A stretch of DNA of 64,000 bases, taken from positions 33,695 through 97,694 of IMG/VR virus record IMGVR_UViG_3300013014_000024; one strand, given 5' to 3'. Origin of the DNA: a virus. The translations under genes were made by a program, and so were the position numbers. The notes under the pieces were generated by a model. The model had not been told where the DNA came from. It made no database searches and saw only the letters and a list, made by a program, of their open reading frames with translations. How positions within the stretch are numbered: position 1 is the first letter of the stretch; the number at the start of each line of letters is the position of its first letter. Shown here one piece after another: positions 9,419 through 33,754 of the stretch.

Positions 9419-10087
9419 TTATTTTGAGTTTAACAATCTTTCAACATGGTGGTCTTCTGGCATTTCAGACAATTTTTCTCTATGTCTCAACAAAGGAACA
9501 ACTTCTCTATACACATTATAAGGTCTGAACTCAGGATGACCATCCATACCCACGTCCATTCTTTGTCCCCTACCAAACCTCATATGAGTTGGCAAATGGC
9601 AGTGTCCGTGTAAGTGCATTACACCCTTATTAAGACCATCCCAAGAACTTATGGGATAATGCATCAAACGGAACTTAAATTGTCCCATTTCAAGTGTATT
9701 GTAGTGTGAAACGGATTTAAACAAACCCTGGCTACCTTGCCTATTGTTTTCTATGTGGTGGTCGTGGTTCCCCAATACCAAATGTATGTTCTTACATACC
9801 AATCTATCCCAAAATTCACGTATTTGCTCAAATCCACCGAAAGACCAGTCACCAAGATGTATCAATATATCATCTTGTTCAACAACTTCATTTATGTTAT
9901 TGACTATGGCGGCATTCATTTTTTCTACAGTAGCAAAATCACGAGTTTGAGATATGGGAACTTGTCCGTCTTGAGTTCTCCAAGCGGTTGTACCACGACA
10001 TATGTTATTATGGGAAAAGTGAGTATCGGAGGTTATCCATACATTAACTTCTGGTACATTTTTTGTATCTACAGGTATCTTTATCAT
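9419..10087 (-). CDS. calcineurin-like metallophosphoesterase
   Basis: SDTHFSH, HLGD, GNHD, HGHCH motifs. Confidence 0.9.
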   Translation of the reverse strand: MIKIPVDTKNVPEVNVWITSDTHFSHNNICRGTTAWRTQDGQVPISQTRDFATVEKMNAAIVNNINEVVEQDDILIHLGDWSFGGFEQIREFWDRLVCKNIHLVLGNHDHHIENNRQGSQGLFKSVSHYNTLEMGQFKFRLMHYPISSWDGLNKGVMHLHGHCHLPTHMRFGRGQRMDVGMDGHPEFRPYNVYREVVPLLRHREKLSEMPEDHHVERLLNSK

Positions 10088-17297: not shown

Positions 17298-17390
17298 TTA
17301 ACAATAGTTTATGGTTCGGGACTTTCCACGTCTCGTATTAACCAAGTTCTCATACGTAATCATCATATCCAAAAGACTACATTTTATCAT
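17298..17390 (-). CDS. putative leader peptide MIKCSLLDMMITYENLVNTRRGKSRTINYC
   Basis: 30-codon ORF starting just after TATTTAT and ending 20 nt before the terminator. Confidence 0.55.
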   Translation of the reverse strand: MIKCSLLDMMITYENLVNTRRGKSRTINYC

Positions 17391-18699: not shown

Positions 18700-19755
18700 A
18701 TGAAAAAAAACAAAATACTCTTCATTTTAAAAAGAAGAGAGGATTATAATCCTGATAAACATTCCCATGTCGGTTTAAGTACTGGCTTATATAATTCTGC
18801 ATCTTTCATGAATAATATGTTAGTTGATGCAGGATTTGAATCAAATTTAGTTGTTGTTACTGATAACAATGATATTGACAGAGAAGTAACAAAGTATAAA
18901 CCAACACATGTAATTATTGAGGCTCTGTGGGTTGTTCCAACAAAGTTTAATGTTTTAACTGAATTACACCCAAATGTTAAATGGGTGATTCGTTTACATA
19001 GTGAAATGCCATTCTTGGCAAATGAAGGAATGGCGATTGATTGGATTGGAGACTATGTTAATTTTGAAAACCTTATTATTGGTGTTAATGCCCCAAGAGC
19101 ATTAGACGAAGTTAAATATTTTATCAAATCATCAACAGGTTGGAGTGATTCCCAAGTAGATGAAAAAATAATATACCTTCCTAATTATTATCCTGAAGCG
19201 GTTATTCGTAAAAAATATGAATTAGATAGTGAATATGTTAACATTTCTTGTTTTGGGGCAATCAGACCTTTAAAAAATCACATAATTCAAGCAATAGCCG
19301 CAATAAAATTTGCAGAAAAAATTGGTAAAAAATTAAGGTTTCACATCAATGGAGGCAGAATTGAAATGAAAGGAGAACCTGTCATGAACAATTTGAAAGC
19401 CTTATTTTTGCATGTTTCAGATAGAGGACATCAACTTGTTAAACATGAATGGACACCAAGAGAAGAGTTTTTAAAGATTTGTGCTCAAATAGACATAGGT
19501 ATGCAAGTTTCATTCTCTGAGACTTTCAATATTGTCGGAGCCGATTTAATAAGTCAAGGAGTTCCTTTGGTTGGTTCCGTAGAAATACCTTGGATAGAAC
19601 AAAAATTTGCAGCACCTGCAACAGAAACTGAAATTATTTATGAAAAATTGTTACTAACAAATAGGAAATCTAAAAAAAATGTTGAGTCCAATCAATATTT
19701 ATTAAATAGATATACAAATAAATCCAAAAAAATATGGCTGAAGTATTTTAGCTGA
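18700..19755 (+). CDS. GT-B fold glycosyltransferase (GT4-like)
   Basis: GAIRPLKN and SFSETFNIVGAD motifs. Confidence 0.75.
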   Translation: MKKNKILFILKRREDYNPDKHSHVGLSTGLYNSASFMNNMLVDAGFESNLVVVTDNNDIDREVTKYKPTHVIIEALWVVPTKFNVLTELHPNVKWVIRLHSEMPFLANEGMAIDWIGDYVNFENLIIGVNAPRALDEVKYFIKSSTGWSDSQVDEKIIYLPNYYPEAVIRKKYELDSEYVNISCFGAIRPLKNHIIQAIAAIKFAEKIGKKLRFHINGGRIEMKGEPVMNNLKALFLHVSDRGHQLVKHEWTPREEFLKICAQIDIGMQVSFSETFNIVGADLISQGVPLVGSVEIPWIEQKFAAPATETEIIYEKLLLTNRKSKKNVESNQYLLNRYTNKSKKIWLKYFS

Positions 19756-19760
19756 AAATT

Positions 19761-19979
19761 ATGAAAAACGAAAAATCATTTAAAGTTAAGTTTGTTGAAT
19801 GGAAGAGAGGGATTTTTTCCATTGCAGAAAAAATGTTTAGTTGTGAGGAAGATGCTGTAAAAGAGTCAGAAAAGTATAATGGTCAAGTTAAAATATATAA
19901 CTCAAAAGGTCATTTAATTAAAAACAAACCTGAAAAACAGAAAGAGGATAAAAAACACAATGAAGATTCTTATTGTTGA
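19761..19979 (+). CDS. hypothetical protein
   Basis: Small ORF after the glycosyltransferase. Confidence 0.5.
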   Translation: MKNEKSFKVKFVEWKRGIFSIAEKMFSCEEDAVKESEKYNGQVKIYNSKGHLIKNKPEKQKEDKKHNEDSYC

Positions 19980-20061
19980 TTTTTTTCAAATAATTTATTT
20001 ATATTTGTAACGTAGTTTTTAATAGAATCACACTATAACGTTGACATTTACAAATAAAATT

Positions 20062-20415
20062 ATGGCACATCCAAACATTCATGCAAAATCATCTGTTAAA
20101 AAATTTGGTGGAAAACCTGAAGATTATATCCATTTACATGAGTGGTTAGACGAAACAAAGGCTTGGTTTGGTGATTCACTTCATAGAATGTTTAGACATC
20201 ATAGTGAAGGCATTTTTGAAATGGAAAAAAGGTTTGGGACTGAGTTTAAAAACTCTGATGGAAAGACCGTATACACTAGATATGTAGGAGAACAACATGT
20301 AAAAGAAGATTGTTACAATTACATTCCTTCCGCAAAAGAATGGGTAGAGAATATTACAAAAAATCAGAGACCCCAATGGATGATGAGGACTGTTAAACTT
20401 GAATTTGAAGATTAA
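20062..20415 (+). CDS. DUF6915-like protein
   Basis: MAHP..HAKSSVKKFGG..EDY..H...D...HRMFRHHSEGIF...GEQHVKED. Confidence 0.7.
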   Translation: MAHPNIHAKSSVKKFGGKPEDYIHLHEWLDETKAWFGDSLHRMFRHHSEGIFEMEKRFGTEFKNSDGKTVYTRYVGEQHVKEDCYNYIPSAKEWVENITKNQRPQWMMRTVKLEFED

Positions 20416-20432
20416 ATACTATATTTATTACT

Positions 20433-21149
20433 ATGGAAAAAAATTTTATGTCAGAAGAAGATAAAGTGGTGCTTCGCAAGGTTGCAAAATACATTAAATC
20501 AAACAATATTAATTCTGGAATTATTGAAATAGTAAATGACTTTTATCATGACCCTCAAAGAGCTCTTAATAATGTGGGAAATTTTAGTAATCATTGGGGT
20601 GTTGAAGTACCTAACTTTTTTAAACATTATTTGGGTGAAATAATTGAAAGGGTACTGTCAAAAGTTGATTATTTGGATGAGGATGATGTTAATTATGACA
20701 ACATAGAAATTGAAATAATTGCAGATAGTTCTATGTTAGAGGTTACTCGTCATTGGGGTTATGAACAACCTGGGGATAGCCGTGGTTTAACTTGGGGTGA
20801 TGATACTGAAGATACTGAATTAGTTAAAAGACTTATGGATGAAATAAGAGAATCTGGTGCAAGACCTGATAGTAATGGTATATTACAATTAGACTATAGT
20901 GGTGGTGGTGATAGTGGTTATATTGAATCGTCGTTTGTTGATGGTGGAAGAGTTCCTGCAAATATTGAAGATTGGTGTTATGAGGTGCTAGAAAACAATT
21001 ACGGAGGTTGGGAAATTAATGAGGGGTCTCAAGGTTACTTTGTTTTTGATACACGAAAAAATACAATTGAGTTAGAGCTTACTTACAATGAATTGACTGA
21101 AGAAACCGAAAACATTTTATCAGTTTATTTTGGAAAACCAAAAGAATAA
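20433..21149 (+). CDS. DUF6878-like protein
   Basis: YSGGGDSG...GWEINEGSQG pattern. Confidence 0.6.
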   Translation: MEKNFMSEEDKVVLRKVAKYIKSNNINSGIIEIVNDFYHDPQRALNNVGNFSNHWGVEVPNFFKHYLGEIIERVLSKVDYLDEDDVNYDNIEIEIIADSSMLEVTRHWGYEQPGDSRGLTWGDDTEDTELVKRLMDEIRESGARPDSNGILQLDYSGGGDSGYIESSFVDGGRVPANIEDWCYEVLENNYGGWEINEGSQGYFVFDTRKNTIELELTYNELTEETENILSVYFGKPKE

Positions 21150-21172
21150 TATTACATTTGTATTGTATAGAT

Positions 21173-21258
21173 ACCAGGGTGTCGTAAAGGTAGCCGAGGA
21201 GGACTTAAAATCCTTTGGACAGAAAAAGTCCGTGCGGGTTCGAATCCCGCTCCTGGTA
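21173..21258 (+). tRNA. tRNA-Leu(TAA)
   Basis: Cloverleaf with long variable arm. Loop CTTAAAA. Confidence 0.9.
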
Positions 21259-21297
21259 CACTTGACTTTTTATATTTTTTAGACTATTTATTATAAC

Positions 21298-21393
21298 ATG
21301 AACAACAGAGTGAAACATATTGTCATTAATAAACAACAATTTGGTTGTTGGTTTCGCAATATGCTCAAACGTAGTTCATCATTAGTTAGTTAA
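21298..21393 (+). CDS. putative leader peptide MNNRVKHIVINKQQFGCWFRNMLKRSSSLVS
   Basis: 31-codon ORF after TATTTAT (21285-21291), ending 22 nt before the terminator. Confidence 0.6.
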   Translation: MNNRVKHIVINKQQFGCWFRNMLKRSSSLVS

Positions 21394-21415
21394 GTTCCTG
21401 AAGACTTATATACAT

Positions 21416-21454
21416 AACCCCGGACTACAGAAATGAGTTCGGGGTTTTTTTTTT
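21416..21454 (+). terminator. intrinsic terminator (attenuator candidate) upstream of the tRNA array
   Basis: AACCCCGGACT-ACAGAAATG-AGTTCGGGGTT followed by a T run. Confidence 0.85.
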
Positions 21455-21492
21455 GGTTCTTTGAAATATTGGTTGTAAATTTGTAAAACAAT

Positions 21493-21564
21493 TGTCTCGT
21501 AGCTCAGTGGTAGAGTTCTATTCTGATACGATAGATGTCGTCGGTTCGATTCCGACCGAGACAA
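21493..21564 (+). tRNA. tRNA-Ile(GAT)
   Basis: Cloverleaf, loop CTGATAC. Confidence 0.9.
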
Positions 21565-21569
21565 CATTT

Positions 21570-21642
21570 GGTAATCAAGCTAACTTAGTAGAAGCGCTAG
21601 ACTGAAAATCTAGAAGAGTTGGAGCGTAACCAACGATTACCA
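21570..21642 (+). tRNA. tRNA-Phe(GAA) with non-canonical T loop
   Basis: GGTAATC/GATTACC. CTAGA-CTGAAAA-TCTAG. T loop AGCGTAA. A8. Confidence 0.8.
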
Positions 21643-21692
21643 CAAAGGTCCGTTCCTTTTTAAAAACCGTTGGTTGTAACATAAGAACAGGA

Positions 21693-21794
21693 TGTTAGGT
21701 AGTGGATATGTAAGCGGGCTCAAGCTCGGTAAGTCAAAAAGGTTATGATTCTCTTTACGAGACCACGTTGTCGGTTCGAGTCCGACCTTAACAA
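21693..21794 (+). ncRNA. tRNA-like RNA with non-canonical interior
   Basis: Acceptor TGTTAGG/CTTAACA and T arm GTCGG-TTCGAGT-CCGAC intact. D and anticodon region expanded. Confidence 0.6.
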
Positions 21795-21807
21795 CAAAAA
21801 ATAAAAT

Positions 21808-21993
21808 ATGAAAGTAGAAATAAAATTTGATAGTACGGATATATGTCCGTATCTTTACGAAGGTTCAGTACTACAACATGTGAGAGAGACAAAGAAAAAT
21901 TATATCGGAATTTTTTCATCATTTGCAGGGTCTTATGAAGTAAAGGTTCCAAAAAAACGAGCTAAAATATTAAAAGATGAAAGCAATACTTGA
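21808..21993 (+). CDS. hypothetical protein
   Basis: Small ORF inside the tRNA array. Confidence 0.5.
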   Translation: MKVEIKFDSTDICPYLYEGSVLQHVRETKKNYIGIFSSFAGSYEVKVPKKRAKILKDESNT

Positions 21994-22210
21994 ATTTAAC
22001 TTACCTGATGACCAACAAGATTTTGAAATGGCTAGTAATGCTATGAAATTTTGGTCTGTATTGTATGAGTTGGACCAAGACCTCAGGTCTAAAACCAAAT
22101 ATGCCCCTGATAGCTTGCCACAAGACAAATATGATGCATATGAGGAAGTTAGGGAAATGTTGCATGAGCTGATGAGAAATGAAAACATCAGTTTGGATAT
22201 GGTGAGATAA
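21977..22210 (+). CDS. hypothetical protein
   Basis: MKAILEFNLPDDQ pattern. Confidence 0.65.
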   Translation: MKAILEFNLPDDQQDFEMASNAMKFWSVLYELDQDLRSKTKYAPDSLPQDKYDAYEEVREMLHELMRNENISLDMVR

Positions 22211-22223
22211 AAAAATAGATATT

Positions 22224-22439
22224 ATGGAGAGAACATTTAATAGTGATGATTTATCTTGGATTGCACTAAGCTTATTAGAATATAGTCGTTCAATGGAGTA
22301 TGAAGGTGATTTCAGTGATTGTGGTAATGAAATTGGGAATATGGTTGGACTTAGATATAAAAATATGACTGAGGGTGAGATTGAAGATTTCATTACGGGA
22401 ATAAGACATGGGATTTCATTAACAAATGGAACTCATTAA
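22224..22439 (+). CDS. hypothetical protein
   Basis: Small ORF. Confidence 0.55.
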   Translation: MERTFNSDDLSWIALSLLEYSRSMEYEGDFSDCGNEIGNMVGLRYKNMTEGEIEDFITGIRHGISLTNGTH

Positions 22440-22445
22440 AATAAT

Positions 22446-22516
22446 GGTCGGGTGGCCGAGTGGTTAGGCTGAAGTCTGCAAAACTTCCTACCCCAGTTCA
22501 AATCTGGGTCCGACCT
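22446..22516 (+). tRNA. tRNA-Cys(GCA)
   Basis: Cloverleaf, loop CTGCAAA, U73. Confidence 0.9.
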
Positions 22517-22523
22517 CAAAAAT

Positions 22524-22609
22524 ACGTGTGTGGCCGAGAGGTTTAGGCAACAGTCTCCAAAACTGTACGGACGAAAGTCCTAACGTGGGTTCGAATCCTA
22601 CCATACGTG
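22524..22609 (+). tRNA. tRNA with anticodon CCA (Trp) and long variable arm
   Basis: ACAGT-CTCCAAA-ACTGT. Variable arm GGAC-GAAA-GTCC. G73. Confidence 0.85.
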
Positions 22610-22809
22610 CAAAAGGTTGATTGGGGAATGGGATATCGCAACCTGATGATGGAGGTTGGAGATTCTCGGAGTTGAAATCATCAAGTAATGCCAATCGTAA
22701 AAGGAGTTGTCCACTCGACCATCTTCTCCTTTCCTAACTTTTGGAAGTATTGTTTATTTTGAGTTATCCGCGGTTTGAGTATAGATACTCAACAATTAGT
22801 TCTTTGAAT

Positions 22810-22894
22810 TGCTTCGTTGCCGTAGTGGCCGAACGGTCCAGACTGTTAATCTGGTGTGTAAAAACCATCGTAGGTTCGAATCCTACCGAAGCAG
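22810..22894 (+). tRNA. tRNA with anticodon GTT (Asn) and 15-nt variable region
   Basis: CCAGA-CTGTTAA-TCTGG. TGCTTCG/CGAAGCA. G73. Confidence 0.85.
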
Positions 22895-22979
22895 CTTTAA
22901 ATACGGAGATAAAAAAATAAAACTATACAAAGTATAGTTTTAGGGTTCAACTTACATATTTATATGTAAAGACTTAGTT

Positions 22980-23609
22980 ATGAAACATTGTGTAAAATGT
23001 AATAGAGAATTTGAACCAAAAAAGGGCCTCATAAATTATTGTAGTTTAGAGTGTAGAAACAGTAGAAGTTGGACAGAAAATGACAAAATTAAAAAATCTA
23101 TTTCAGCAAAAAATTCAGATAAAGTAAAAATTGCAAATAAAAAAATAGGTTTATTAAATCATGAAAAGGCCACAATAAAAACTATGTGTCTACATTGTCA
23201 AGAACTAATAGTTCACACTAGATGGAAATCAAGAAAATATCACAAAGAATGCTGGTTGAAGTCATCTGGGGGATATAGGGAAAATTCAACTGTAAAACAC
23301 AAATGTTTTTATAAAGGGGTTTGTATGGATTCTGGCTCTGAAAAAGAATTTGCCATAAAATGTGATGAACATAATATTGCTTGGGAAAAAAACAATATAA
23401 TATACTTTGAATACATAGGGGTTGATGGTAAAAAACATAAATATTATCCTGATTTTTATATAAAAAAAAGTAATAAATGGGTTGAAATAAAAGGAAAATT
23501 ATATGGTGAAAAAGATGTAAATTTGGAAAAAAAATTATTGTCAGTAGATAACATTATTTTGATATATTCTAAAGAAATTAAAAAATTTGATTTTGGTCTA
23601 TTGGTGTAA
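22980..23609 (+). mobile_element. free-standing PD-(D/E)xK endonuclease with Cys-rich N-terminus
   Basis: CVKC..YCSLEC, DSGSE, YYPDFY...WVEIKG. Confidence 0.8.
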
Positions 23610-23667
23610 GGGCTAACATGTCGCACTGTCGATGCGAAGACTCTCGGTTCGAATCCGTGATAGACCG
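23595..23667 (+). tRNA. tRNA-Asp(GTC)
   Basis: TCGCA-CTGTCGA-TGCGA. G73. Confidence 0.85.
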
Positions 23668-23712
23668 CAGTGAGTAAGAGATACTCAGAGTCTTTAATCC
23701 AAGACTTAAACA

Positions 23713-23924
23713 ATGGGTAGATGTTTGGTAGTATCAGTCGTAAATGACTACTCATGGGAATAACGTTGATAAACCTATCCTCGCCCAGTAAAGGTTGACA
23801 GGTTTTTATGTGGTAAGACACTAATGAAAAAGACCTAATTCATGAGGTAACTATATGGGTTATCAAACAGATATAGGGGATATGGTTCTCGAACAGTCAG
23901 AGAAACCCGTTAAAATCTACTCAT
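23713..23924 (+). ncRNA. unclassified multibranch structured RNA
   Basis: Nested helices ATGGGTAGAT/ATCTACTCAT, TGTTTGGTAG/TTATCAAACA, CTCATG/CATGAG, AGGTTTTT/AAAGACCT. Confidence 0.55.
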
Positions 23925-23947
23925 CATCAATCTCATGATGGGGACAT

Positions 23948-24020
23948 GCGGAAGTAGCTCATTCGGTAGAGCACAACCTTGCCAAGGTTGGGGTGGCCAG
24001 TTCGAGCCTGGTCTTCCGCT
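23948..24020 (+). tRNA. tRNA-Gly(GCC)
   Basis: Canonical cloverleaf. Confidence 0.95.
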
Positions 24021-24070
24021 CAAGGGGTGGTGGGAACCCATGAATATGTGATGAATATATACCCACAAAT

Positions 24071-24144
24071 GCGGATTTCGCCTAGTTGGTATGGCATCAC
24101 ACTTCCAATGTGAAATAGGGTCGGTTCGAGCCCGATAATCCGCT
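24071..24144 (+). tRNA. tRNA-Gly(TCC)
   Basis: Cloverleaf, loop CTTCCAA. Confidence 0.9.
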
Positions 24145-24200
24145 CAAGTGGGCCTTTGTGGACGGCCGAAAGGAAAATAGGTTTTTTTCATCCACTATAT

Positions 24201-24325
24201 GGTCAGGTGGCGGAATTGGTATACGATGAAAAACTGCAATGAGGTAGGTCGAACCTCACATTAAACAAAAAAGGCATCAACGCAGGAGTGCGGAAGCGTT
24301 GCAGGTTCGAATCCTGTCCTGACTA
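24201..24325 (+). ncRNA. Leu-like tRNA body with replaced anticodon domain
   Basis: GGTCAGG-TGGCGGAATTGGTATACG...GCAGG-TTCGAAT-CCTGT-CCTGACT-A. Confidence 0.65.
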
Positions 24326-24450
24326 CAGACTCTCGTCTATTGCTGTGAATAGAACTGACGAGAACCATTGAGGGACACAGACCTTATGAATGGTGGTTTA
24401 GGGCGAAGATAGCACCCCTATCACGAAGAGTACCTAAGCTCTTTAAACAT

Positions 24451-24609
24451 AGTCAGGTGGCGGAATGTTATTAACCCGTTCTAGACGTAAAAATAATGTG
24501 GTTAAAATCCACTACGGGGTCAATGTAACTTGGTAGACGCTCGCTAGAAGGTGCGGTTAGTCAACGATAAGGTAAAGCTAACATACAGGTTCAAATCCTG
24601 TCCTGACTA
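24451..24609 (+). ncRNA. Leu-like tRNA body with about 64-nt D-loop insertion
   Basis: AGTCAGG-TGGCGGAA[insert]TTGGTAGACGC...ACAGG-TTCAAAT-CCTGT-CCTGACT-A. Confidence 0.65.
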
Positions 24610-24862
24610 CACGTTCCGTCTAATCAACGGATAGTTCAATCCTGAACGATGAGAAATGGTGTGATAACCATATGGGTCAGTTCACCCTGAGTGGGGCGGT
24701 AAAGGGTACGGTTGACTGCCGTTAGATTGTATCTACAAAAGTCTATTCCTAACCTGTATGATAGAGAGTTGGTTGTATTAACACACCTTCATCAAAAATG
24801 CTAAACTCTTTCTTAGGGACAGCCATAATACCTGTAAGTTGGATAAATTAGGGTGTTAGTTT

Positions 24863-24935
24863 GGTCTTATAGTATAATGGATTAATACACTTCGATACGG
24901 ACGAAGAAATTTGGGTTCAAATCCTAATAGGACCT
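24863..24935 (+). tRNA. tRNA-Arg(ACG)
   Basis: CTTCG-ATACGGA-CGAAG. Confidence 0.85.
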
Positions 24936-24940
24936 CATAT

Positions 24941-25017
24941 GGTGGATATAGCTTAATTGGTAGAGCACTAGCTTGTGGCGCTAGTTGTTGCGGGTTCGAG
25001 TCCCGCTATTCACACCA
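24941..25017 (+). tRNA. tRNA-His(GTG)
   Basis: Encoded G-1, loop TTGTGGC, A73, encoded CCA. Confidence 0.9.
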
Positions 25018-25044
25018 TTTTTGATTTGCCGCATATTTATCAAT

Positions 25045-25494
25045 ATGGAAAAATTAACATTAACTAAAGAACAATTATTTAAGGCAATGTACTTAAATGA
25101 GGAGGAAAATAAAATTGAAATTAAAAGTAATTCGGGTTTCAAAAATATGGTCTCAGTTTTATTGCATTCACAAACTCAAGTACACATATTTCATTTACAA
25201 ACTAAATCATTTTCTGAACATAAAGCATTACAAAAATATTATGAAGAAATTGATGGTTTAGTTGATGGAATTATTGAAAGTTACCAAGGTAAATACGAAA
25301 TTATTAAAAATTATGATTCTGTGAAAACTGAGGATTATAAAAGTCTTGACCAAGTAATTAACTATTTCAAATCATTAGATACTATGATTGAAAAGGTTAG
25401 AAAAAATGTTAAAGAGTCATTTATTCAAAATCAAATTGATACTGTTCAAGAATTAATATACTCCACATTGTACAAATTAAGATTTTTAAAATAA
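25045..25494 (+). CDS. ferritin/Dps-like protein (DUF5856-like)
   Basis: HIFHLQTKSFSEHKALQKYYE...E.YQGKY...LYKLRFL. ATG 25045 follows TATTTAT. Confidence 0.7.
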   Translation: MEKLTLTKEQLFKAMYLNEEENKIEIKSNSGFKNMVSVLLHSQTQVHIFHLQTKSFSEHKALQKYYEEIDGLVDGIIESYQGKYEIIKNYDSVKTEDYKSLDQVINYFKSLDTMIEKVRKNVKESFIQNQIDTVQELIYSTLYKLRFLK

Positions 25495-25548
25495 TATTTG
25501 ACTAAATGGGATTTTCTCAGTATATTTACTTTATATAAAAACATAATT

Positions 25549-25710
25549 ATGAAAAAATTAGTCGCTTTCCTTGCAATTGTATCATTGGTATCATGTGGTG
25601 GAGATAGTTCCACAAATTCAAATGTAGACTCAACTGTAGTTGTAGATACTGTAATTGTTGATTCAACAGTGGTAGATTCAGTATCTGTTGATACTGTAGT
25701 TACTCAGTAA
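25549..25710 (+). CDS. small lipoprotein rich in D-S/T-x sequons
   Basis: MKKLVAFLAIVSLVS-C lipobox. DST, DTV, DST, DSV, DTV. Confidence 0.75.
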   Translation: MKKLVAFLAIVSLVSCGGDSSTNSNVDSTVVVDTVIVDSTVVDSVSVDTVVTQ

Positions 25711-25759
25711 TTTTTAATTACTAAAAAGAAATTTAAAACCCATCCTAAGATGGGTTTTT

Positions 25760-27001
25760 TTATTTTAATAGTTTTCTAATTTTGTTGATATCTTTTTGTA
25801 TTTTATATTCTTCTTTAAAATTGGCTGGATAATATACGGCATTAGGATTTATTTCACGAGATGGAAAATATACAGCATTAGCATCCGGTATTTTACTTGG
25901 ATAATACACTTTATTAGGGTCAATAATGGTTTTTCTTTTATAAGAACCTTTTTTACCGTCTCTTGAATATTTTTTATTATCACCCGAATATTCTTTTTCT
26001 CTATAATAATCAATTCTACTTCTTTCTTTTGATGAATTATACAAAGTAACAGTTACATCATCATCACCAATTTCACCAATCATTTCGCCTTTAAAAACAT
26101 CACCACTATCTTTTGTATTTTTTAATCCACAATATTCTAAATAAAAATTTTTACCATCAATTTCGTGTGTAATATTTATTTTGTTTTTACAACCATAAGA
26201 AAATCCTTGTTTTGTTATTACCCCATCTACGGGTGATTTAATTTTAGAATTCTTATCTTTTGGTATTACAAGGACATAACCATTACTTGAAACTCCATTT
26301 CCAAAACCACCATAAATTTTTTCTTCAAATATTATGTCATAACTTTCCGTTTTTACTGAACTTTGGTAATAAGTTTGGTTAGGGTCAATTAATTTTGGTT
26401 GATAATATGTTTGGTTAGGGTTAATTACTTTTGGTGTAAACGATGTAGTATCCGATGTTGTATTATTTGTGGATGTGGTACCCGTAGATGTACTATCTGT
26501 TGTATTTGAAACGTGTAGATGATTGTAATGGTTTCCATCTACATTTGTTTGCCATATAACGGCTTTATCGTTTCCCCTCTCAGAGTTCAGAGAATATCTC
26601 ATAGAGACTAAGATATCTTTTAATTTATTACCTAAATCTCTAAATTGAGCGTTTCCATTTGATGGACTAGTTGCATCTCCAGAATCTTGGTTATTTATTT
26701 TTCCAATATCAACAGCGGTTTTTTGTCCATGTCGGCTTTCAGCTCCTGATGTTGTTCTAGTGTTGTGACCTGTTGATGCGGTTGTTATTGTAACAGTTAC
26801 ACCAGCTTTAGCTGCGGCAGTTTGTAAATCATCTAAAAGTGCCTTATTAACCGAATCTGAAGCCGCTTTAGTGTCGTAAAATACATTTTTATATCTAACA
26901 GTATTTAATGTGATTGGTTTAATCTCATTTAAAGTAATTATTTTTTTATTTTCTAAAATTGAATTATATATTGAAAGTATATTATTTATTTCATTTATCA
27001 T
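25760..27001 (-). CDS. putative peptidoglycan peptidase (M15-like domain plus degenerate M23-like domain)
   Basis: SRH...AVDI...HYNHLHV and IKSPVDGVI...GEMIG. I(N/D)PN..YY repeats. Confidence 0.55.
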   Translation of the reverse strand: MINEINNILSIYNSILENKKIITLNEIKPITLNTVRYKNVFYDTKAASDSVNKALLDDLQTAAAKAGVTVTITTASTGHNTRTTSGAESRHGQKTAVDIGKINNQDSGDATSPSNGNAQFRDLGNKLKDILVSMRYSLNSERGNDKAVIWQTNVDGNHYNHLHVSNTTDSTSTGTTSTNNTTSDTTSFTPKVINPNQTYYQPKLIDPNQTYYQSSVKTESYDIIFEEKIYGGFGNGVSSNGYVLVIPKDKNSKIKSPVDGVITKQGFSYGCKNKINITHEIDGKNFYLEYCGLKNTKDSGDVFKGEMIGEIGDDDVTVTLYNSSKERSRIDYYREKEYSGDNKKYSRDGKKGSYKRKTIIDPNKVYYPSKIPDANAVYFPSREINPNAVYYPANFKEEYKIQKDINKIRKLLK

Positions 27002-27230
27002 GAATATAAATATGTTATAAATAAAAAAAGTGGTCAGGGACAAGTGGGAACAACCCTTGGAGTCGACTTCCTTTCACTGCTGCAGGCAGTTACACTTGTA
27101 TGACCACTACACGTTAAAAATAGATAATGTCTCCTAATTCCCAATCTTCTTGGGAATCTTCTTGTGGTTCCGGGTCAAGTTCTACCTTGGTTTGCAAAAT
27201 CACTAACATACTATACTAACGGATTTTATG

Positions 27231-27302
27231 AGCCCCCGCCCGGAATCGAACCGAGTTATCATGATTACAAGTCATGCGCATCGCCTGCAATGCTTAAAGG
27301 GC
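27231..27302 (-). tRNA. tRNA-Thr(TGT)
   Basis: CATGA-CTTGTAA-TCATG. T arm CTCGG-TTCGATT-CCGGG. Confidence 0.85.
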
Positions 27303-27311
27303 TTGTTTTTA

Positions 27312-27509
27312 TTAAGTATCTTGAAAATTTAATTTGTTCATCTCCTCGATACTTTTAAGACCATTTTTCCACTCTCTCCATATTTCAAAATCCTGAAGGT
27401 CTTGTAAGGTTTTTTCGTGTACCAAGACAAAACCTTCAGGTGCCACTCCTACAAATCTACGAACATTTCCCTCTTCTTCCAAAATTTTTTCAATATTTAT
27501 TTTACTCAT
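27312..27509 (-). CDS. hypothetical protein
   Basis: Small ORF. Confidence 0.55.
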   Translation of the reverse strand: MSKINIEKILEEEGNVRRFVGVAPEGFVLVHEKTLQDLQDFEIWREWKNGLKSIEEMNKLNFQDT

Positions 27510-28101
27510 CTTTTTTATTTAAATATTTTAGAATAGATTCTTTAATTCCTGTTTGTTTAATCCCCTCATTATCTTTTTCGGTCAATACAAAGTTATCTAA
27601 TCCCCACTCATGTTCGAACTCCATAGAGTAATATAAACCCGTTTTACCCATGTTTAAATCATCTACAGCCACCCAATTTGTTATCTCAGGATGGTCAACT
27701 AAATATTGTTTAATTTCAATAGACCTAGATTGTTCTAAATCCCATTGTCTTTCCCAAGGAAACACATTATTGTCATACCACTTACATTCATACGATTTAA
27801 GAGTAAACGAAATAGGTTTTTTTATAATTCCTTGTGATTCATAGTATTCACCCATTTCTTCAAGATTACAATGAAGTTTCCAATCAGAACTAACAACAAT
27901 CTCAGCTCCAGTTTCTTCTAAAATCTCATTTAAAACTTTTACCGCTTTTTTGTTAAAGTTATCAAACCTATATTCAAGTGGAATTTCTCCATTAGACATA
28001 GACAATTTTCTACCGCCCCATTTTTTTTGTTTTTTATAACGACCACCCCATTCTGTTGATAAACAGATTACTCCGTCATGGTCTAAAAATAGAATTTTCA
28101 T
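27502..28101 (-). CDS. HAD phosphatase, Swiss-Army-Knife RNA-repair-like (HAD_SAK_2)
   Basis: FLDHDGV, IVVSSDW, RSIEI, WVAVDD. Confidence 0.85.
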   Translation of the reverse strand: MKILFLDHDGVICLSTEWGGRYKKQKKWGGRKLSMSNGEIPLEYRFDNFNKKAVKVLNEILEETGAEIVVSSDWKLHCNLEEMGEYYESQGIIKKPISFTLKSYECKWYDNNVFPWERQWDLEQSRSIEIKQYLVDHPEITNWVAVDDLNMGKTGLYYSMEFEHEWGLDNFVLTEKDNEGIKQTGIKESILKYLNKKDE

Positions 28102-28176
28102 AACACAAAAGTAGATATTTATTATTAAAACACCAAAAGTCTTAGGACATAAATTTTAAACCCACACAGATGGAAG

Positions 28177-28401
28177 ATGGAGAAAAACAAGTTTACGTGG
28201 CAGAGAACGTTTCAAGACAACCTGTCACAAATATTTCTAATGTTAGCACTATTTTTCAACCCATTCGGGTTCGATGCCGTTCAATATTCTATAATATCAT
28301 GGACAGGAAGTTTATGGAAAGCCAACTTCGTTTTGTATTGTATTGCGGGATTCTTTTTTGGTCTTTATTTCTACTTTCGCAAGTTATCTAACAAACCTTA
28401 A
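28177..28401 (+). CDS. small two-TM membrane protein
   Basis: Two hydrophobic helices and a basic C-terminus. Confidence 0.55.
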   Translation: MEKNKFTWQRTFQDNLSQIFLMLALFFNPFGFDAVQYSIISWTGSLWKANFVLYCIAGFFFGLYFYFRKLSNKP

Positions 28402-29867
28402 AGTGCTTTAAGTTCACCGTTTTTATATGCTTCAAAATTAGGTCCTTTCATTAAAAAAAATTGGTTTCCTATTTTTCTATATTTCAAAATGCCAGCATTT
28501 TTTGCTGATGCAAAAAAGGATGAAAAATGACCTCTCCATTTTGAGGATTGATGCCAATTATTCATACCTTGTTGGGAGTACCAAACTGAACCATTCTCTG
28601 AAACCTTTCCTTCAAGTTTACCAATCTCAACAAGAAAATCTAACTTTGTTCCAATTTTTCCTTCATCTAACCAATCAACTAACTTTTTAATCAAACCTTT
28701 ATTTTTTTCAAAAGTATATCCGTAATGGAGTCTATCAGGTGTCCATACGGGTGTCTTATGAATATGTTGTAAAAGAATTGAATTATTTTCTAAGATTCGT
28801 CTAACAGAATTTAAGATGTAAGTTGCTATTGTAGAACTAATATTAGTTGTGTGATGTACAATAACATTAAAACTACCCCCAAAACCATCAAAACCTAAAT
28901 CAACTTTAAATTCTGAACCAACGTCACCAAAGTTATAATTAATCTCTAAACCGTATGACGAATCTCTTTTTCTTAAATTAGCACTAATAATAATTAAATA
29001 TTCATCCAACAAACCTTGTTGTTTTTCTTTTCTTTCATATATCTTCAAACCAGAATGAACTATGAAGGTGTTTTCATAATGGTCCATAAGTTCAAATCCG
29101 TTTATTGTTGTCGTTATTATAACATCAGAAATTATAATACTTTCAGTAAAAACATCGTTTGTTGTAAGTGATTGTTTTATTTTATCGACTGTTTCATCTG
29201 GATGAGCATCATCGTGATATTCTTTAATGGTTTTCCACATTTCAGAATATGCATTTTTAAAAAATACTTTTTCTCTACTACTTAAAGTGCTATCGGCAGC
29301 ATCGTAGAATGTTTCCTCACCTTGATTACTAATGTGAATTGCAATTTTATATAGATTTTCATCCATATCTTTTTTTGAAATTACATAGTAAAGACCTTGA
29401 TTACCTGAAGTATACCTGTTAAAGTAATCATCGTTATTTTTATTTGTTGTACACCATCTTGTTTTTGAACCGTATTTACAAGATGCCGCAAAGTTTTGAG
29501 GTTCAACAACAACAAATTTATCATCTTCGTATATTTTTTTTGATTTTGGTTTCTCTTTGTTTCTAGTGTATTCACTAATTCTTGAAATCAAATCAAAAAA
29601 TCCTGTATAATCATTTATGTCTTTTTTTTCTAAATTGTTTTGTACTTTATCAAACTTTTGTAATGCCTCAATTACCTCTTCAAGTTCTCTAAATGAATAA
29701 TTAGAATTTAAATTTTTTAAAATAAAATCGGCGTATTTGTAGTTAGTTTGCTTAATGAATTGGTCCGCAAAAACGTTACTAAGACCCTCATCTGAGAATT
29801 TTGATTCGTATTTTTTCATGAGGTCTTCTTTTCTTCCCTCCCTTAATAAAATGGTCATGAATTTCAT
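28398..29867 (-). CDS. hypothetical protein (ASCKYG..TRWC domain)
   Basis: 489-aa ORF sharing a domain with 34414-35778. Confidence 0.7.
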   Translation of the reverse strand: MKFMTILLREGRKEDLMKKYESKFSDEGLSNVFADQFIKQTNYKYADFILKNLNSNYSFRELEEVIEALQKFDKVQNNLEKKDINDYTGFFDLISRISEYTRNKEKPKSKKIYEDDKFVVVEPQNFAASCKYGSKTRWCTTNKNNDDYFNRYTSGNQGLYYVISKKDMDENLYKIAIHISNQGEETFYDAADSTLSSREKVFFKNAYSEMWKTIKEYHDDAHPDETVDKIKQSLTTNDVFTESIIISDVIITTTINGFELMDHYENTFIVHSGLKIYERKEKQQGLLDEYLIIISANLRKRDSSYGLEINYNFGDVGSEFKVDLGFDGFGGSFNVIVHHTTNISSTIATYILNSVRRILENNSILLQHIHKTPVWTPDRLHYGYTFEKNKGLIKKLVDWLDEGKIGTKLDFLVEIGKLEGKVSENGSVWYSQQGMNNWHQSSKWRGHFSSFFASAKNAGILKYRKIGNQFFLMKGPNFEAYKNGELKAL

Positions 29868-29910
29868 ATGATATAAATATGCGAAAAGGGAGATTACTCT
29901 CCCTTTTATG

Positions 29911-29982
29911 TGGTCTCGTCAAGAATCGAACTTGAATCTGGAGATTAGAAGTCACCCGTTCTATCCGTTGAACTACGAGACC
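29911..29982 (-). tRNA. tRNA-Arg(TCT)
   Basis: Cloverleaf, loop CTTCTAA. Confidence 0.9.
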
Positions 29983-29983
29983 A

Positions 29984-30331
29984 TTATTTCCAAAATAATT
30001 GTATCAACAATATACAAAAACTTAAAGATAAACAAATAATTGTTTTAATAGTAAAACTTTCTTTAAATAAAATAACGGACATAAATGTAAACACAACCAT
30101 ACCAATTGAAAATCCTAACAACCTTCCTGGCCATATCTGACCACCAAACCCATCCGCAATAAAACTAACTGATTTAATATATAACCAACTTGTAAAAATA
30201 CTACTAAAAAGTATTACCCATAAATATTTTTCATACCAATTATACTTTATTGCAACCTGTAATTGTATAAAGGAACCTATTTGTCCTAATAAGGCAAAAA
30301 ATATTCCAATCAGTATTTTATTTATATCCAT
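29984..30331 (-). CDS. four-TM membrane protein
   Basis: Hydrophobic ORF with TATATTTG upstream. Confidence 0.6.
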   Translation of the reverse strand: MDINKILIGIFFALLGQIGSFIQLQVAIKYNWYEKYLWVILFSSIFTSWLYIKSVSFIADGFGGQIWPGRLLGFSIGMVVFTFMSVILFKESFTIKTIICLSLSFCILLIQLFWK

Positions 30332-30405
30332 TTGTAACAAATATAGTAAAAATTTGTAACAAAAAAACCCCACCGAAGTGAGGGTTTTAAATTATATGAT
30401 TTTTA

Positions 30406-30726
30406 TTATTTTTTGTTCTTTATAATTAATTCACCTAAAACTTCTAATCTCCCCACTTCAGTTTGAAACTCTTTTTGTGTCATATCAAGTGAGATAGAAT
30501 TTAATGTTTTTTTAAACTCTTCAATAGATTTATTTTCATCAAATTTACCCTCACCAGCTTTTTTATAATATGGTAATTTCACAACAAAGTGTTGATATGT
30601 TAGTATTGAAGGTCCACCTTTCTCTTTTGCGGTATTAGCAATTTTTTCAGCACCAGAAAATCTTTTCTTCGCAAATTCTTCTAAATTTAATTTTTTTAGT
30701 TGTGATTCGGTTATAATTATTTTCAT
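30406..30726 (-). CDS. late protein (MKIIITESQL)
   Basis: ORF after TATTTAT. Confidence 0.65.
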   Translation of the reverse strand: MKIIITESQLKKLNLEEFAKKRFSGAEKIANTAKEKGGPSILTYQHFVVKLPYYKKAGEGKFDENKSIEEFKKTLNSISLDMTQKEFQTEVGRLEVLGELIIKNKK

Positions 30727-30819
30727 ATATTATAAATATATTGAAATTATAAATGTAAATTACACAACAATAAAAGAGATATGGATATGATTAATGACCA
30801 AATAATATCTCTTTCAAAA

Positions 30820-31611
30820 TTAATCTTCTTTCCTGTGTTCCAATTCAGTAGTAATTCTATTAGTTTCATATTTTTTTAATTCTATTTGTCCATTATTATC
30901 AACAACAAGTGCGGTCATATTCTCAACCCAATCACCTGAATTTAAGTATCTTTTATTGTTAATCATTCTATCTGCAGGTTGATGAATATGTCCACAAATA
31001 ACACCTTCACATCCAGCTTTCTCGGCCATATTGATGGCAGTAGTTTCAAAGTCGTTAATATATAAAGTTGCGGTTTTTACTCCCTCTTTAATTTTTTGTG
31101 AAATTGATTGATAAGATAAACCCCTCCACGCCCTGTATTTGTTATACACTCTATTTAACCAAAGAGCCATATCGTATCCTATTGAACCTATTCTTGATAA
31201 CCACTTATATTTTGTTATAAAAACATCAATAACATCTCCATGAAAAACATAAAAATTTCTACTGATAAAAACATCTCTGGTTTTCCATTCTTGGGTTTTC
31301 AGAATAAAGTTTTCTTTAAATTGTATATTTCCAAATGAGGTATCAATAAATTCAGATAAAAATTCATCATGATTTCCTCTAATCCAAATAACATTTGTGT
31401 CATTTGACATTGTTAAAATTTTAGAAATTACTTTGGTGTGTTTTTTCTTCCACTTGCTACCCCTATTTAATGCCCAAGCATCAACTATATCACCATTCAA
31501 TACTAAAGTATCGCACGGATGTTGTTCTAAAAACTCTAAAAACTCATTACATTTACTATCCTTAGTTCCTAAATGTAAATCAGAAACAATAACATATTGA
31601 TATTTTTTCAT
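30820..31611 (-). CDS. LpxH-like metallophosphoesterase (UDP-2,3-diacylglucosamine hydrolase family)
   Basis: SDLHLG, LNGDIVD, GNHD, HGD, CGHIH, NSGDWVE. Confidence 0.85.
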   Translation of the reverse strand: MKKYQYVIVSDLHLGTKDSKCNEFLEFLEQHPCDTLVLNGDIVDAWALNRGSKWKKKHTKVISKILTMSNDTNVIWIRGNHDEFLSEFIDTSFGNIQFKENFILKTQEWKTRDVFISRNFYVFHGDVIDVFITKYKWLSRIGSIGYDMALWLNRVYNKYRAWRGLSYQSISQKIKEGVKTATLYINDFETTAINMAEKAGCEGVICGHIHQPADRMINNKRYLNSGDWVENMTALVVDNNGQIELKKYETNRITTELEHRKED

Positions 31612-32309
31612 TTCCAATAATTGTGGTCTTTTTCAAAGAAGGCAGGATTATTTTTATTTAACATAGAAAGAAACATCATTTTAATCATATATAAAAGACC
31701 TTTTTTCTTTAATCTTCTATCTGTTGTATAAACTTTATGATTAGAAATGAAAATTTTATCAGGATGTATTTTACTACTTAAATCATAGTCCTCGGCAAAT
31801 AGAACTTTAGAATTGAATCCACCAAGCTCAAAAAACTTGTTTCTATTAAACAACATAAATCCACCTAAAACAAATGGAAAATGATTCATAGTCCAATCTC
31901 TAAAAAACTCAAATATTGGATATACGTATGAATATTTTCCTCTACATCTAAATTTAGCAGTTACTAACTCTAAATCACCACCCTCAATTATTTTTAAAAT
32001 ATTATGTGTTGTATTGGTATCTGTTAAAAATATATCAGCATCTAAAAATAAGATATATTTTGTTTCTGATAAAATTGCTCCGTTATTCCTTGCAATAGAC
32101 GGAACACCTCCTTGAGTAAATTCTATATTAATATTTTCGTATTTTTTTGATAGAACTACTTCTTTTGTGTTATCGGTAGAGTTATCACAGATAATAACTC
32201 TTGTATTTGAGATATGTTTTTGTTTGTTAAGTAAATCCAAAGTAGTACTTATGACTTCAGATTCATTTTTACAAGGTATTACAATAGTTAATAACTCATT
32301 GATTTTCAT
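31608..32309 (-). CDS. GT2 glycosyltransferase
   Basis: IVIPCKNE, ARNNGA, FLDAD, GGF...AED. Confidence 0.9.
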   Translation of the reverse strand: MKINELLTIVIPCKNESEVISTTLDLLNKQKHISNTRVIICDNSTDNTKEVVLSKKYENINIEFTQGGVPSIARNNGAILSETKYILFLDADIFLTDTNTTHNILKIIEGGDLELVTAKFRCRGKYSYVYPIFEFFRDWTMNHFPFVLGGFMLFNRNKFFELGGFNSKVLFAEDYDLSSKIHPDKIFISNHKVYTTDRRLKKKGLLYMIKMMFLSMLNKNNPAFFEKDHNYWK

Positions 32310-32359
32310 TCTGATAAATATGGAATGAAACCGACTTTCGTTTTAATAAATTATTAAAT

Positions 32360-32842
32360 TTATGGTGTTACAAAACTATTATTTAGCGACCCATCATTTC
32401 TATCTGACGGAGGAGGATATAATAAAGTTTTATTACTTTTAATAATTTTTAACACCATATTTTTATAACCCTTAGTTGTTGAATAGTATTTGTCTAAATA
32501 GTTCAAATATGATGCCCTTGTAAATTTATGAGTTGAAAACAACATTTTTTGGAACAAATAATAATCTTCAATACTTTCCCTCCAAGAGTTGTAAATTGCG
32601 TATCCATGAAAAGAACCAACAGAAGTTGTTGTTCTTTTCATAGGATTTCGCATACCAAAAATATTGTTATTTTTTTGGGTTAACCTACTGGTAAATCCAC
32701 CCGACTCAAGAACCGCTTGAGCAAATACAATATCAGGAAATTCAAGACCCTGCTCAAGTATTTCATTATATACTCCTAAATGCGTTGCACTGTCTTTTAC
32801 CGGTGTAATCACCGACAAAAGAAAAATCAATATTAACTTCAT
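32360..32842 (-). CDS. glucosaminidase (GH73-like) with N-terminal signal
   Basis: AQAVLESG...NNIFGM...Y.SW.ES...Y pattern. Confidence 0.8.
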   Translation of the reverse strand: MKLILIFLLSVITPVKDSATHLGVYNEILEQGLEFPDIVFAQAVLESGGFTSRLTQKNNNIFGMRNPMKRTTTSVGSFHGYAIYNSWRESIEDYYLFQKMLFSTHKFTRASYLNYLDKYYSTTKGYKNMVLKIIKSNKTLLYPPPSDRNDGSLNNSFVTP

Positions 32843-32843
32843 G

Positions 32844-32915
32844 TAGCCTTGCACGGAGTCGAACCGAAATCTCTACCGTGAAAGGGTAGCGTCCTAACCA
32901 TTAGACGACGAGGCC
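32844..32915 (-). tRNA. tRNA-Glu(TTC)
   Basis: CTACC-CTTTCAC-GGTAG. Some stem mismatches. Confidence 0.85.
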
Positions 32916-32925
32916 AAAATAAAAA

Positions 32926-33110
32926 AAACAGACTTTTCGTACCCGTTTGTACATCATAACCAATTTTACTCGGCGGTCATATTTTCGTAAATGGGTTAAT
33001 TACTCCCGGTACTTATAATGACTCTACCCTCACCGCTTTAATATCGCGAATCAAGACGGCCTATTTGGGATTCATATACCGTGGGGTTCCACCACCGTCG
33101 TTGTCTGTTT
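32926..33110 (-). ncRNA. unclassified 185-nt structured RNA
   Basis: Ends pair (AAACAGAC/GTCTGTTT). Internal GACGG/CCGTC, GTGG/CCAC, GCGGT/ACCGC. TATCTTTG promoter at 33117-33124. Confidence 0.55.
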
Positions 33111-33189
33111 AGAATACAAAGATAATAAATATTTTTAAAAAAACTAACCACCTCCATATTTTTTTTATCATCTCCATATATTTATAAAT

Positions 33190-33738
33190 ATGAACAAAAG
33201 GAAAATAAAACATAAAATGGGTAAATGTACCTGTAAAAATTGTGGTATTGAGTTTGAAAAACCATTGACGGAAATTAGAAGAAATGAAAAATTAAATAGA
33301 CCTAATTTTTGTAGTAGAACTTGTGTCGGAAAAAATAATGCTAAAAATTTTGGTGACAGAAAAAATAATTATGACATTTCACAACATTCAAGTAACCGCT
33401 TAGACGGATATACTAAGTTTAGATACCATTATAGAAATATGAAAAAAAGGTATCATGATATTGACGTAACTATTGATGATTTAAATGAACAATGGAAAAA
33501 ACAAGATGGTATTTGTGAATTTAGTGGAGTTAAATTAAATTTATCATCTTACACTAAAATAAATAAAAATCCAATATATACGGCATCTTTAGATAGAATT
33601 GATAATTCTAAAGGATATATTAAAGGAAATATTAGGTGGGTGTCAAGAGCAATGAATTGGATGAAAAATACTATGTCGGATGAAATGGTTGAGGAACTAC
33701 TCCAAATTATTGTTGAATATAAAAAAACCCCCAATTAA
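33190..33738 (+). mobile_element. free-standing HNH-like endonuclease
   Basis: CKNC...FCSRTC and SLDRIDNSKGYIKGNIRWV...N.MK. Confidence 0.75.
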
Positions 33739-33754
33739 GGGGGTTTTAGTTAAG

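Follow-up and report, generated by a model that had tools for sequence, protein, structure and literature searches.

Comparative sequence analysis of uncultured freshwater phages indicates that, within one clade, the tRNA arrays are punctuated by a conserved module ~200 nt in length. The module consists, in this order, of a promoter, a mini-ORF enclosed in a long hairpin, a small hairpin, an intrinsic terminator, and a consensus promoter. This last promoter is fused to the U tract of the terminator, and is predicted to start the next unit 4–16 nt before the next gene. All six sequence types of the module contain three mutually exclusive pairings between four segments (1:2, 2:3, and 3:4). As segment 2 can pair with either the 5′ end of the ORF (segment 1) or the 5′ arm of the terminator (segment 3), we tentatively read the module as an attenuator-type switch, in which a leaky, translation-sensitive terminator would set read-through from upstream units.

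The analysis concerns a stretch of 64,000 nt (the window) at the 3′ end of a virus record from IMG/VR, a fragment of 97.7 kb that is ~32% complete. Here, a sequence-only reading had proposed a leader-peptide attenuator gating the phage tRNA array. All of the features that it listed could be located in the window sequence, among them the 31-codon ORF and, downstream of it, a strong terminator ending in a run of 10 T (Table 1).

Table 1. Features of the module and the adjoining tRNA genes, in window coordinates.
Feature	Position	Strand	Details
tRNA-Leu −7 box, Bacteroidota-type, TACATTTG	21153..21160	+	Sequence and consensus of PMC6847099; predicted start ~21165
tRNA-Leu(UAA)	21173..21259	+	ARAGORN; Rfam tRNA model, 48.3 bits; first tRNA of the array
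Mini-ORF promoter-like region	21262..21291	+	TTGACT 21262–21267; degenerate −7 TATATTTT 21271–21278; TATTTAT 21285–21291
Mini-ORF, 31 codons, MNNRVKHIVINKQQFGCWFRNMLKRSSSLVS	21298..21393	+	Frame open in 27 loci
ORF-spanning hairpin (segments 1:2, "protector")	21298..21379	+	Minimum-energy fold −19.9 kcal/mol, z −3.0
Segment 2 (A C GUAGUUC AU), common to protector and antiterminator	21369..21379	+	GUAGUUC invariant; GUAGCUU in type B
Small hairpin UAAGUU-CCUGAA-GACUUA	21391..21408	+	Holds the stop codon; apex of the antiterminator hairpin
Intrinsic terminator (segments 3:4), U10 tract	21416..21454	+	−18.8 kcal/mol, z −3.4; stem 21416–21446
Segment 3, CCCCGGACUACAG	21418–21430	+	Part of the terminator
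Downstream-unit promoter, TTTG-N20-TAAATTTG	21452..21483	+	−33 TTTG 21452–21455; −7 21476–21483; consensus of PMC6847099
tRNA-Ile(GAU)	21493..21565	+	ARAGORN and Rfam tRNA model; first gene of the downstream unit

The module and its relatives

Relatives of the module were collected from phage or metagenome loci by pattern and profile searches, including a degenerate DNA pattern. The module was found in at least 26 further loci, which fall into six sequence types: type A, which resembles the window (L001, L003, L005/6, L007, L008, L012–L014, and L016), type B, with 25 codons (L010 and L015), and types C–F, with 27–36 codons (within L025–L044), in which the encoded peptides have the core xTTxxHxVFSKQQxxCWYxxMxxCSS. 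Matches to the pattern that were unrelated (L018–L024, L026, L031, L034, L036, L038, and L040) were set aside. Three other loci (L009, L011, and L017) carry a homologous terminator-promoter cassette without the ORF. Compared with a neighboring protein gene (63% identity at the amino acid level), the module is better conserved, at 83% for the DNA of the ORF and more than 90% for the 3′ part; because the 3′ untranslated stretch served as the search pattern for some of the loci, its invariance is partly an effect of ascertainment. Within the 97.7-kb fragment, itself about a third of a genome, the module is present in a single copy when up to 5–7 mismatches are allowed.

The position of the module does not agree with the proposal that the tRNA array lies behind a leader. 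The gene for tRNA-Leu(UAA) sits directly upstream, 38 nt 5′ of the mini-ORF, so that the array starts before the putative leader, and in large arrays of relatives the module is found mid-array, between tRNA-Leu(UAG) and tRNA-Glu. The next gene also differs between relatives: it can encode tRNA-Ile, Glu, Gln, Arg, or Val, an unidentified RNA of ~80 nt, or a protein, in which case the ATG lies 4 nt past the −7 box.

In an Rfam scan of positions 19000–34000, no family covered the module and no leader model matched; the only match at the module was a sub-threshold one of NsiR1 on the terminator (23.7 bits vs a gathering score of 39, E 0.56). A comparison with INPHARED phage records gave matches to the tRNA-Leu only and none to the module. 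In the metatranscriptome run X19, a 219-nt contig of a relative covers positions 21255–21454 plus 17 nt, at a depth of ~3 and with DNA carry-over possible; its ends fall at neither the promoter nor the terminator.

Open frame and alternative pairings

The mini-ORF is conserved in related loci as an open frame. In all six sequence types, 27 loci in total, the frame is open over 25–36 codons, and the other two frames contain 2–5 stops. Indels are in frame, and the frame is kept despite heavy divergence between the types; in L007, L008, and L016, deletion of one codon is accompanied by insertion of another, and the total is still 31 codons. Constraint on the peptide itself is weak: dN/dS amounts to 0.3–0.8, and the variable columns are spread evenly over the three codon positions (15/16/15), without a third-position bias. 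The codons that are conserved show no synonymous change and coincide with strands of RNA helices (AAC/ACUACA, CAU, CAACAA, UGUUGG, and UGUAGUUC). Moreover, a frameshift in L044 has kept the RNA GUAGUUCAG, which is read there as V-V-Q instead of C-S-S, so that segment 2 is conserved as RNA. Taken together, the weak peptide constraint, the helix-bound codons, and L044 show that an open frame over an RNA structure is selected, rather than a particular peptide.

These observations bear on the main rival of a translation-sensitive terminator, which is a plain autonomous mini-gene. Here, a promoter would drive the expression of a small, fast-evolving phage peptide of 27–36 aa from a structured mRNA, the terminator would be constitutive and insulating, and the 2:3 complementarity would have no regulatory role. 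We consider this explanation somewhat unlikely. The peptide core of types C–F does recur in distant homologs, as would be expected of a gene, but a dN/dS of up to 0.8, the missing third-position bias, the coincidence of conserved codons with helices, and the retention of RNA rather than peptide in L044 all count against it. Cys/His ligands also vary in number between relatives, with a single Cys in the window and in L012, which led us to reject a zinc-binding peptide too. A type I toxin was rejected as well, since the encoded peptide is not hydrophobic but polar and basic.

The hairpin that the sequence-only reading described as a protector is the minimum-energy fold of the ORF region, and is composed of an outer helix (AUGAAC/GUUCAU), an inner helix (CAUAUUG/CAAUAUG), and an apical helix (AACAAC/GUUGUU). 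Each of the 19 distinct aligned ORF sequences folds into a single long hairpin that spans the start region through UGUAGUUC (z −1.4 to −4.4), and the whole RNAs of type A relatives reach folding z-scores of −3.3 to −4.4. In every type, the 3′ strand of the hairpin has two possible partners, the 5′ end of the ORF and the terminator's 5′ arm. The second of these pairings, proposed as the antiterminator, joins GTAGTTC (21371–21377) to GGACTAC (21422–21428) in the window, over 7 bp with one G-U and with a duplex energy of −9.5.

When imposed on the full RNA, the antiterminator costs 13 kcal/mol (−29.1 vs −42.5). In the nascent RNA of the window, before the 3′ arm of the terminator, it is already part of the minimum-energy fold. 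Among the six types, A, B, D, and E likewise fold the 2:3 helix in the nascent RNA, whereas in C and F masking of segment 1 is required, as the minimum-energy fold at this stage otherwise retains 1:2. In every ORF-bearing type the 2:3 duplex has an energy of −9.5 to −14.4 kcal/mol, compared with −1.2 to −8.3 kcal/mol for segment 2 against the homologous terminators without an ORF (L009 and L017). In these terminators, GAAC of the arm has drifted to AAAA or AAAU, and its retention only where the ORF is present is a further point against a plain mini-gene. The presence of 2:3 complementarity in every ORF-bearing type, and its absence from the ORF-less terminators, argues that the attenuator-like anatomy is, at the level of sequence, real and conserved.

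Support for selection on the 2:3 pairing is limited to this loss of GAAC and to one compensatory lineage. In type B, a change of U to C in segment 2 is matched by a change of A to G in segment 3, by which 9/9 pairs are kept. As segment 2 is otherwise nearly invariant, true covariation of 2:3 comes from this lineage only. Energies of 2:3 within and between types differ little (−11.2 for segments of the same type vs −10.0 for those of other types). In favor of the alternative pairings, segments 1 and 3 of type C share an identical 8-mer, GAACUACA. Covariation in 1:2 is modest: when structures were given by hand, ten cells were changed on both sides, a number that was reached by 9/500 shuffles. 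RNAalifold returned only the apical helix from an alignment of 19 sequences, because the register of the outer helix differs between types. The trp-type geometry that had been proposed is borne out in part. The 1:2, 2:3, and 3:4 pairings are all there, but the stop codon lies anywhere from 5 to 28 nt past segment 2 across relatives, which makes for a poor fit to the strict form of this geometry.

Promoters and terminators

Promoters of the Bacteroidota sigma-A type carry the −7 element TAnnTTTG and a −33 TTTG, and transcription starts 4–5 nt after the G (PMC6847099). The hosts of these phages are probably Bacteroidota; no Shine-Dalgarno sequence is found, and leaders are short or absent. Two motifs recur before the start codons of the genome, TATTTAT, mostly at 4–5 nt from the ATG, and TAnnTTTG, at as little as 4 nt. 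These distances imply that leaderless or near-leaderless mRNAs are widespread. When genes were sorted by the two promoter classes and annotated with Pfam, no clear split between early and late genes was seen.

The sequence-only reading had named TATTTAT as the promoter motif of the mini-ORF, from whose ATG it is 6 nt away, and this is supported by its distribution in the genome. Of the 139 ORFs, 43 have the motif in the 60 nt that precede them, against 4.5 expected. At 31 of its 119 sites the first ATG follows 4–6 nt downstream, and 27 of these 31 open ORFs of at least 80 codons, so that the mini-ORF shares its promoter-start geometry with 27 long genes. This geometry can be counted in favor of the translation-sensitive terminator; as a signature of bona fide genes, it is also in line with a mini-gene. 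In types C–F, a full TTTG-N19-TATCTTTG is present at the equivalent place.

A second mini-ORF with the same signature, which is also a point for a mini-gene, was found on the minus strand at 17298–17390 (30 codons). TATTTAT precedes its ATG by 4 nt, a terminator lies 20 nt past its stop codon, and genes for an HNH protein and clpP follow downstream. In sequence, it does not resemble the module near tRNA-Leu.

Between the terminator and tRNA-Ile, which are 38 nt apart, the window contains a predicted promoter with the −33 TTTG, the −7 TAnnTTTG, and the spacing of the Bacteroidota sigma-A type. Its TTTG is formed by the end of the U tract plus a G, the spacer measures 20 nt, and transcription is predicted to start at ~21488, 5 nt before the tRNA. 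A promoter placed to start at the next gene follows the terminator in every one of the 25 loci long enough to show it, with fixed consensus positions and a variable "nn" (AA, AT, TC, TA, or CT). Throughout the genome, TAnnTTTG is enriched 4–35 nt before ATGs, often right after GGGGTTTTTT terminators; a terminator followed by a promoter is ordinary gene punctuation here, as a mini-gene would have it. Since the predicted promoter stands between the terminator and the next gene, read-through is not needed for downstream expression, which again suits a mini-gene. An independent promoter at this place is what the sequence-only reading had itself named as speaking against a leader that gates the array, and on this prediction that claim is not supported. 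In L028 (minus strand), the post-terminator promoter is duplicated, as TACTTTTG followed by TAAATTTG, with an 18-codon ORF between the copies that overlaps the second one.

The stem of the terminator was missed by a simple terminator scanner because its loop is 9 nt long; changes within the stem in relatives preserve pairing. Among 41 terminator-like hairpins in the genome, the one in the module ranks ninth by upstream complementarity to the 5′ arm, and about 20% of the terminators of the genome show complementarity that is equal or stronger, as would be expected if 2:3 had no function in a mini-gene. The case from the window alone is therefore weak, and it is at the level of the family that the anatomy is conserved.

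Possible functions and known counterparts

From this anatomy we infer, as the likeliest of the readings considered, a translation-sensitive terminator, the direction in which it would switch, and the signal that it would respond to. In an untranslated RNA, hairpin 1:2 would fold and transcription would terminate. A ribosome inside the ORF would open 1:2, segment 2 would then capture segment 3, and RNA polymerase would read on. In this way the switch would set the share of upstream transcription, from the tRNA-Leu promoter and the ORF promoter, that enters the downstream tRNAs. Because these tRNAs carry their own predicted promoter, by which they would be driven in any case, the module would be at most an auxiliary leaky gate, and not the master switch of the array. 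The switch reading is weakened by the downstream promoter in 25/25 loci, the variable next gene, the cassettes without an ORF, the terminator-promoter order usual in this genome, the rank of 9 out of 41, the near-invariance of segment 2, the variable distance to the stop codon, the lack of tandem regulatory codons, and the retention of 1:2 in nascent RNAs of types C and F.

Alternatively, the module could give rise to a trans-acting stable small RNA of ~150–165 nt, possibly with a dual function, whose ends are protected by the 5′ hairpin and the terminator hairpin. Its counterparts would be stable RNAs such as those from the tRNA cluster of T4, or an sRNA derived from an attenuator, such as rnTrpL. 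The transcript would be compact and highly structured, paired at the 5′ end and closed by a terminator at the 3′ end, and conservation is indeed greater at the level of RNA than of peptide and extends beyond that of the flanking protein gene. That a single frame survives indels in six types would not, however, be expected of a purely noncoding RNA; neither a candidate target nor a seed was found, no Rfam family matched, and we think such an RNA improbable.

A further possibility, to which we attach only a small chance, is that the switch acts as a codon sampler. Ribosomes would slow in the ORF when charged tRNAs matching those of the downstream genes (Cys, Trp, Tyr, His, Gln, Lys, Phe, Ile, and Glu, among others) become scarce, for example through a host tRNA-cleaving defense; the antiterminator would form, and polymerase would read through into the replacement tRNA sub-cluster. 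If true, the phage would carry its own feedback sensor for the tRNA pool. Codon usage is suggestive, at the level of sequence, of a mild enrichment for codons read by downstream tRNAs, among loci that are not independent. Such codons number 19/27 in L032 (12.1 expected), 21/31 in L033 (14.0 expected), 12/24 in L010 (3.2 expected), and 14/30 in L013 (5.1 expected), and variable codons summed over 10 related loci are mildly enriched as well (86 vs 63.6 expected). In addition, some loci with fuller arrays are poor in codons for which only upstream tRNAs are available.

The same counts favor the strong form of the sequence-only reading, in which the ORF would sense a shortage of downstream-encoded tRNAs, for instance, and speculatively, under attack by an anticodon nuclease, and would gate the array on; so do the RNA-repair-type HAD domain encoded by the phage and the finding that phage tRNAs counter tRNA-cleaving defenses (PMC11464382). 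This form is very unlikely in view of the universal downstream promoter, the start of the array upstream of the module, and the codons themselves. A run of 7 codons matching downstream tRNAs, as seen in the window, is present in 1.3% of 31-codon segments taken from real ORFs, but the total in the window is not significant (14/30 vs 10.1 expected, P 0.12–0.14). The run is not conserved: only its TGT TGG (Cys-Trp) codons are invariant, and these form, together with the invariant Gln-Gln codons, the two strands of the apical helix. Nor are there tandem regulatory codons in the mini-ORF, in which the Cys and Trp codons are single. Finally, each locus scored little better with its own tRNA set than with swapped sets (z 2.36 vs 1.65, for non-independent loci), which indicates little lineage-specific matching.

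In mechanism, the closest known kind are the leader-peptide attenuators, such as E. coli trpL, pheL, and hisL (Rfam Trp_leader, RF00513). The module shares with these a short ORF that is predicted to be translated, exclusive 1:2, 2:3, and 3:4 pairings, an intrinsic terminator, and an ORF length that is better conserved than the peptide sequence. In contrast to them, it lacks tandem regulatory codons, its stop codon is not at a fixed distance from segment 2, the "regulated" genes are separated from the terminator by a consensus promoter, and these genes are tRNAs or differ between relatives. The probable hosts, Bacteroidota without a Shine-Dalgarno sequence, set it apart as well.

In architecture, the closest kind are the PeSL promoter-terminator cassettes of T4-like phages (PMC2839356, PMC4122927), which likewise fuse a stem-loop terminator to a promoter, are conserved in nucleotide sequence beyond the flanking genes, and have varying cargo next to them. 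Unlike the module, PeSLs are multi-copy and flank genes of hyperplastic regions; with one copy in the 97.7-kb genome fragment, we rejected the idea that the module is an element of this multi-copy kind. The module also differs from them in carrying a hairpin ORF that is predicted to be translated, and no sign of recombination mediated by the cassette was found. A short terminated transcript with a mini-ORF that could act alone is also known from Sinorhizobium meliloti, as rnTrpL with its leader peptide peTrpL (PMC6614838), but that RNA lies ahead of a biosynthetic operon, whereas the module is embedded among phage tRNA genes.

In full-text literature searches, no report of a leader-type switch in the tRNA array of a phage was found. 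Such arrays are usually treated as constitutive passengers. Non-tRNA small products do occur within tRNA transcription units or at their ends, as in the T4 tRNA cluster with its stable RNAs and in E. coli tyrT-tpr/rtT; these are not known to be related to the module in sequence or to have the 1:2/2:3/3:4 anatomy. Leader-peptide attenuators are hardly described in Bacteroidota-type expression systems. A translation-sensitive terminator, if true, would thus be the first sign of phages metering tRNA transcription by the state of translation, and a leader-peptide-type switch in a Bacteroidota-type expression system. Even under a sober reading, a new conserved family of small genes or RNAs is defined, along with a promoter and terminator grammar for a clade of large uncultured lake phages (TATTTAT or TAnnTTTG ~4–6 nt before the ATG) that is of use for annotation.

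Several further features of these arrays were observed. In L001 (6752–7590), tRNA-Leu appears to be split by an insert of ~780 nt with an ORF for an HNH-type endonuclease, which looks like an intron with a homing nuclease, and the tRNA-Leu(UAA) genes of L005, L006, and L013 have an insert of ~23 nt in the anticodon loop. A conserved stretch of ~80 nt, located behind the post-terminator promoter and before tRNA-Gln in L001 (8366–8445), L012, L014, and L016, may be another small RNA. In the window, a weak tRNA-like match (21693–21794, 22.6 bits) follows tRNA-Phe, as the same sequence does in L001, and may represent a degenerate or interrupted tRNA. The window's tRNA-Trp(CCA) (22524–22610, 87 nt) and tRNA-Asn(GUU) (22810–22895, 86 nt) have a long extra arm and a type II shape, compared with an ordinary 72–74 nt in relatives. 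Lastly, a protein encoded at 27505–28101 (−) has a match to Pfam HAD_SAK_2 (E 5.7e-19), which describes the HAD domain of RNA repair proteins of the "Swiss Army Knife" kind, and a metallophosphoesterase is encoded at 9422–10087 (−); together, these may form a toolkit for RNA or tRNA repair beside the tRNA array.
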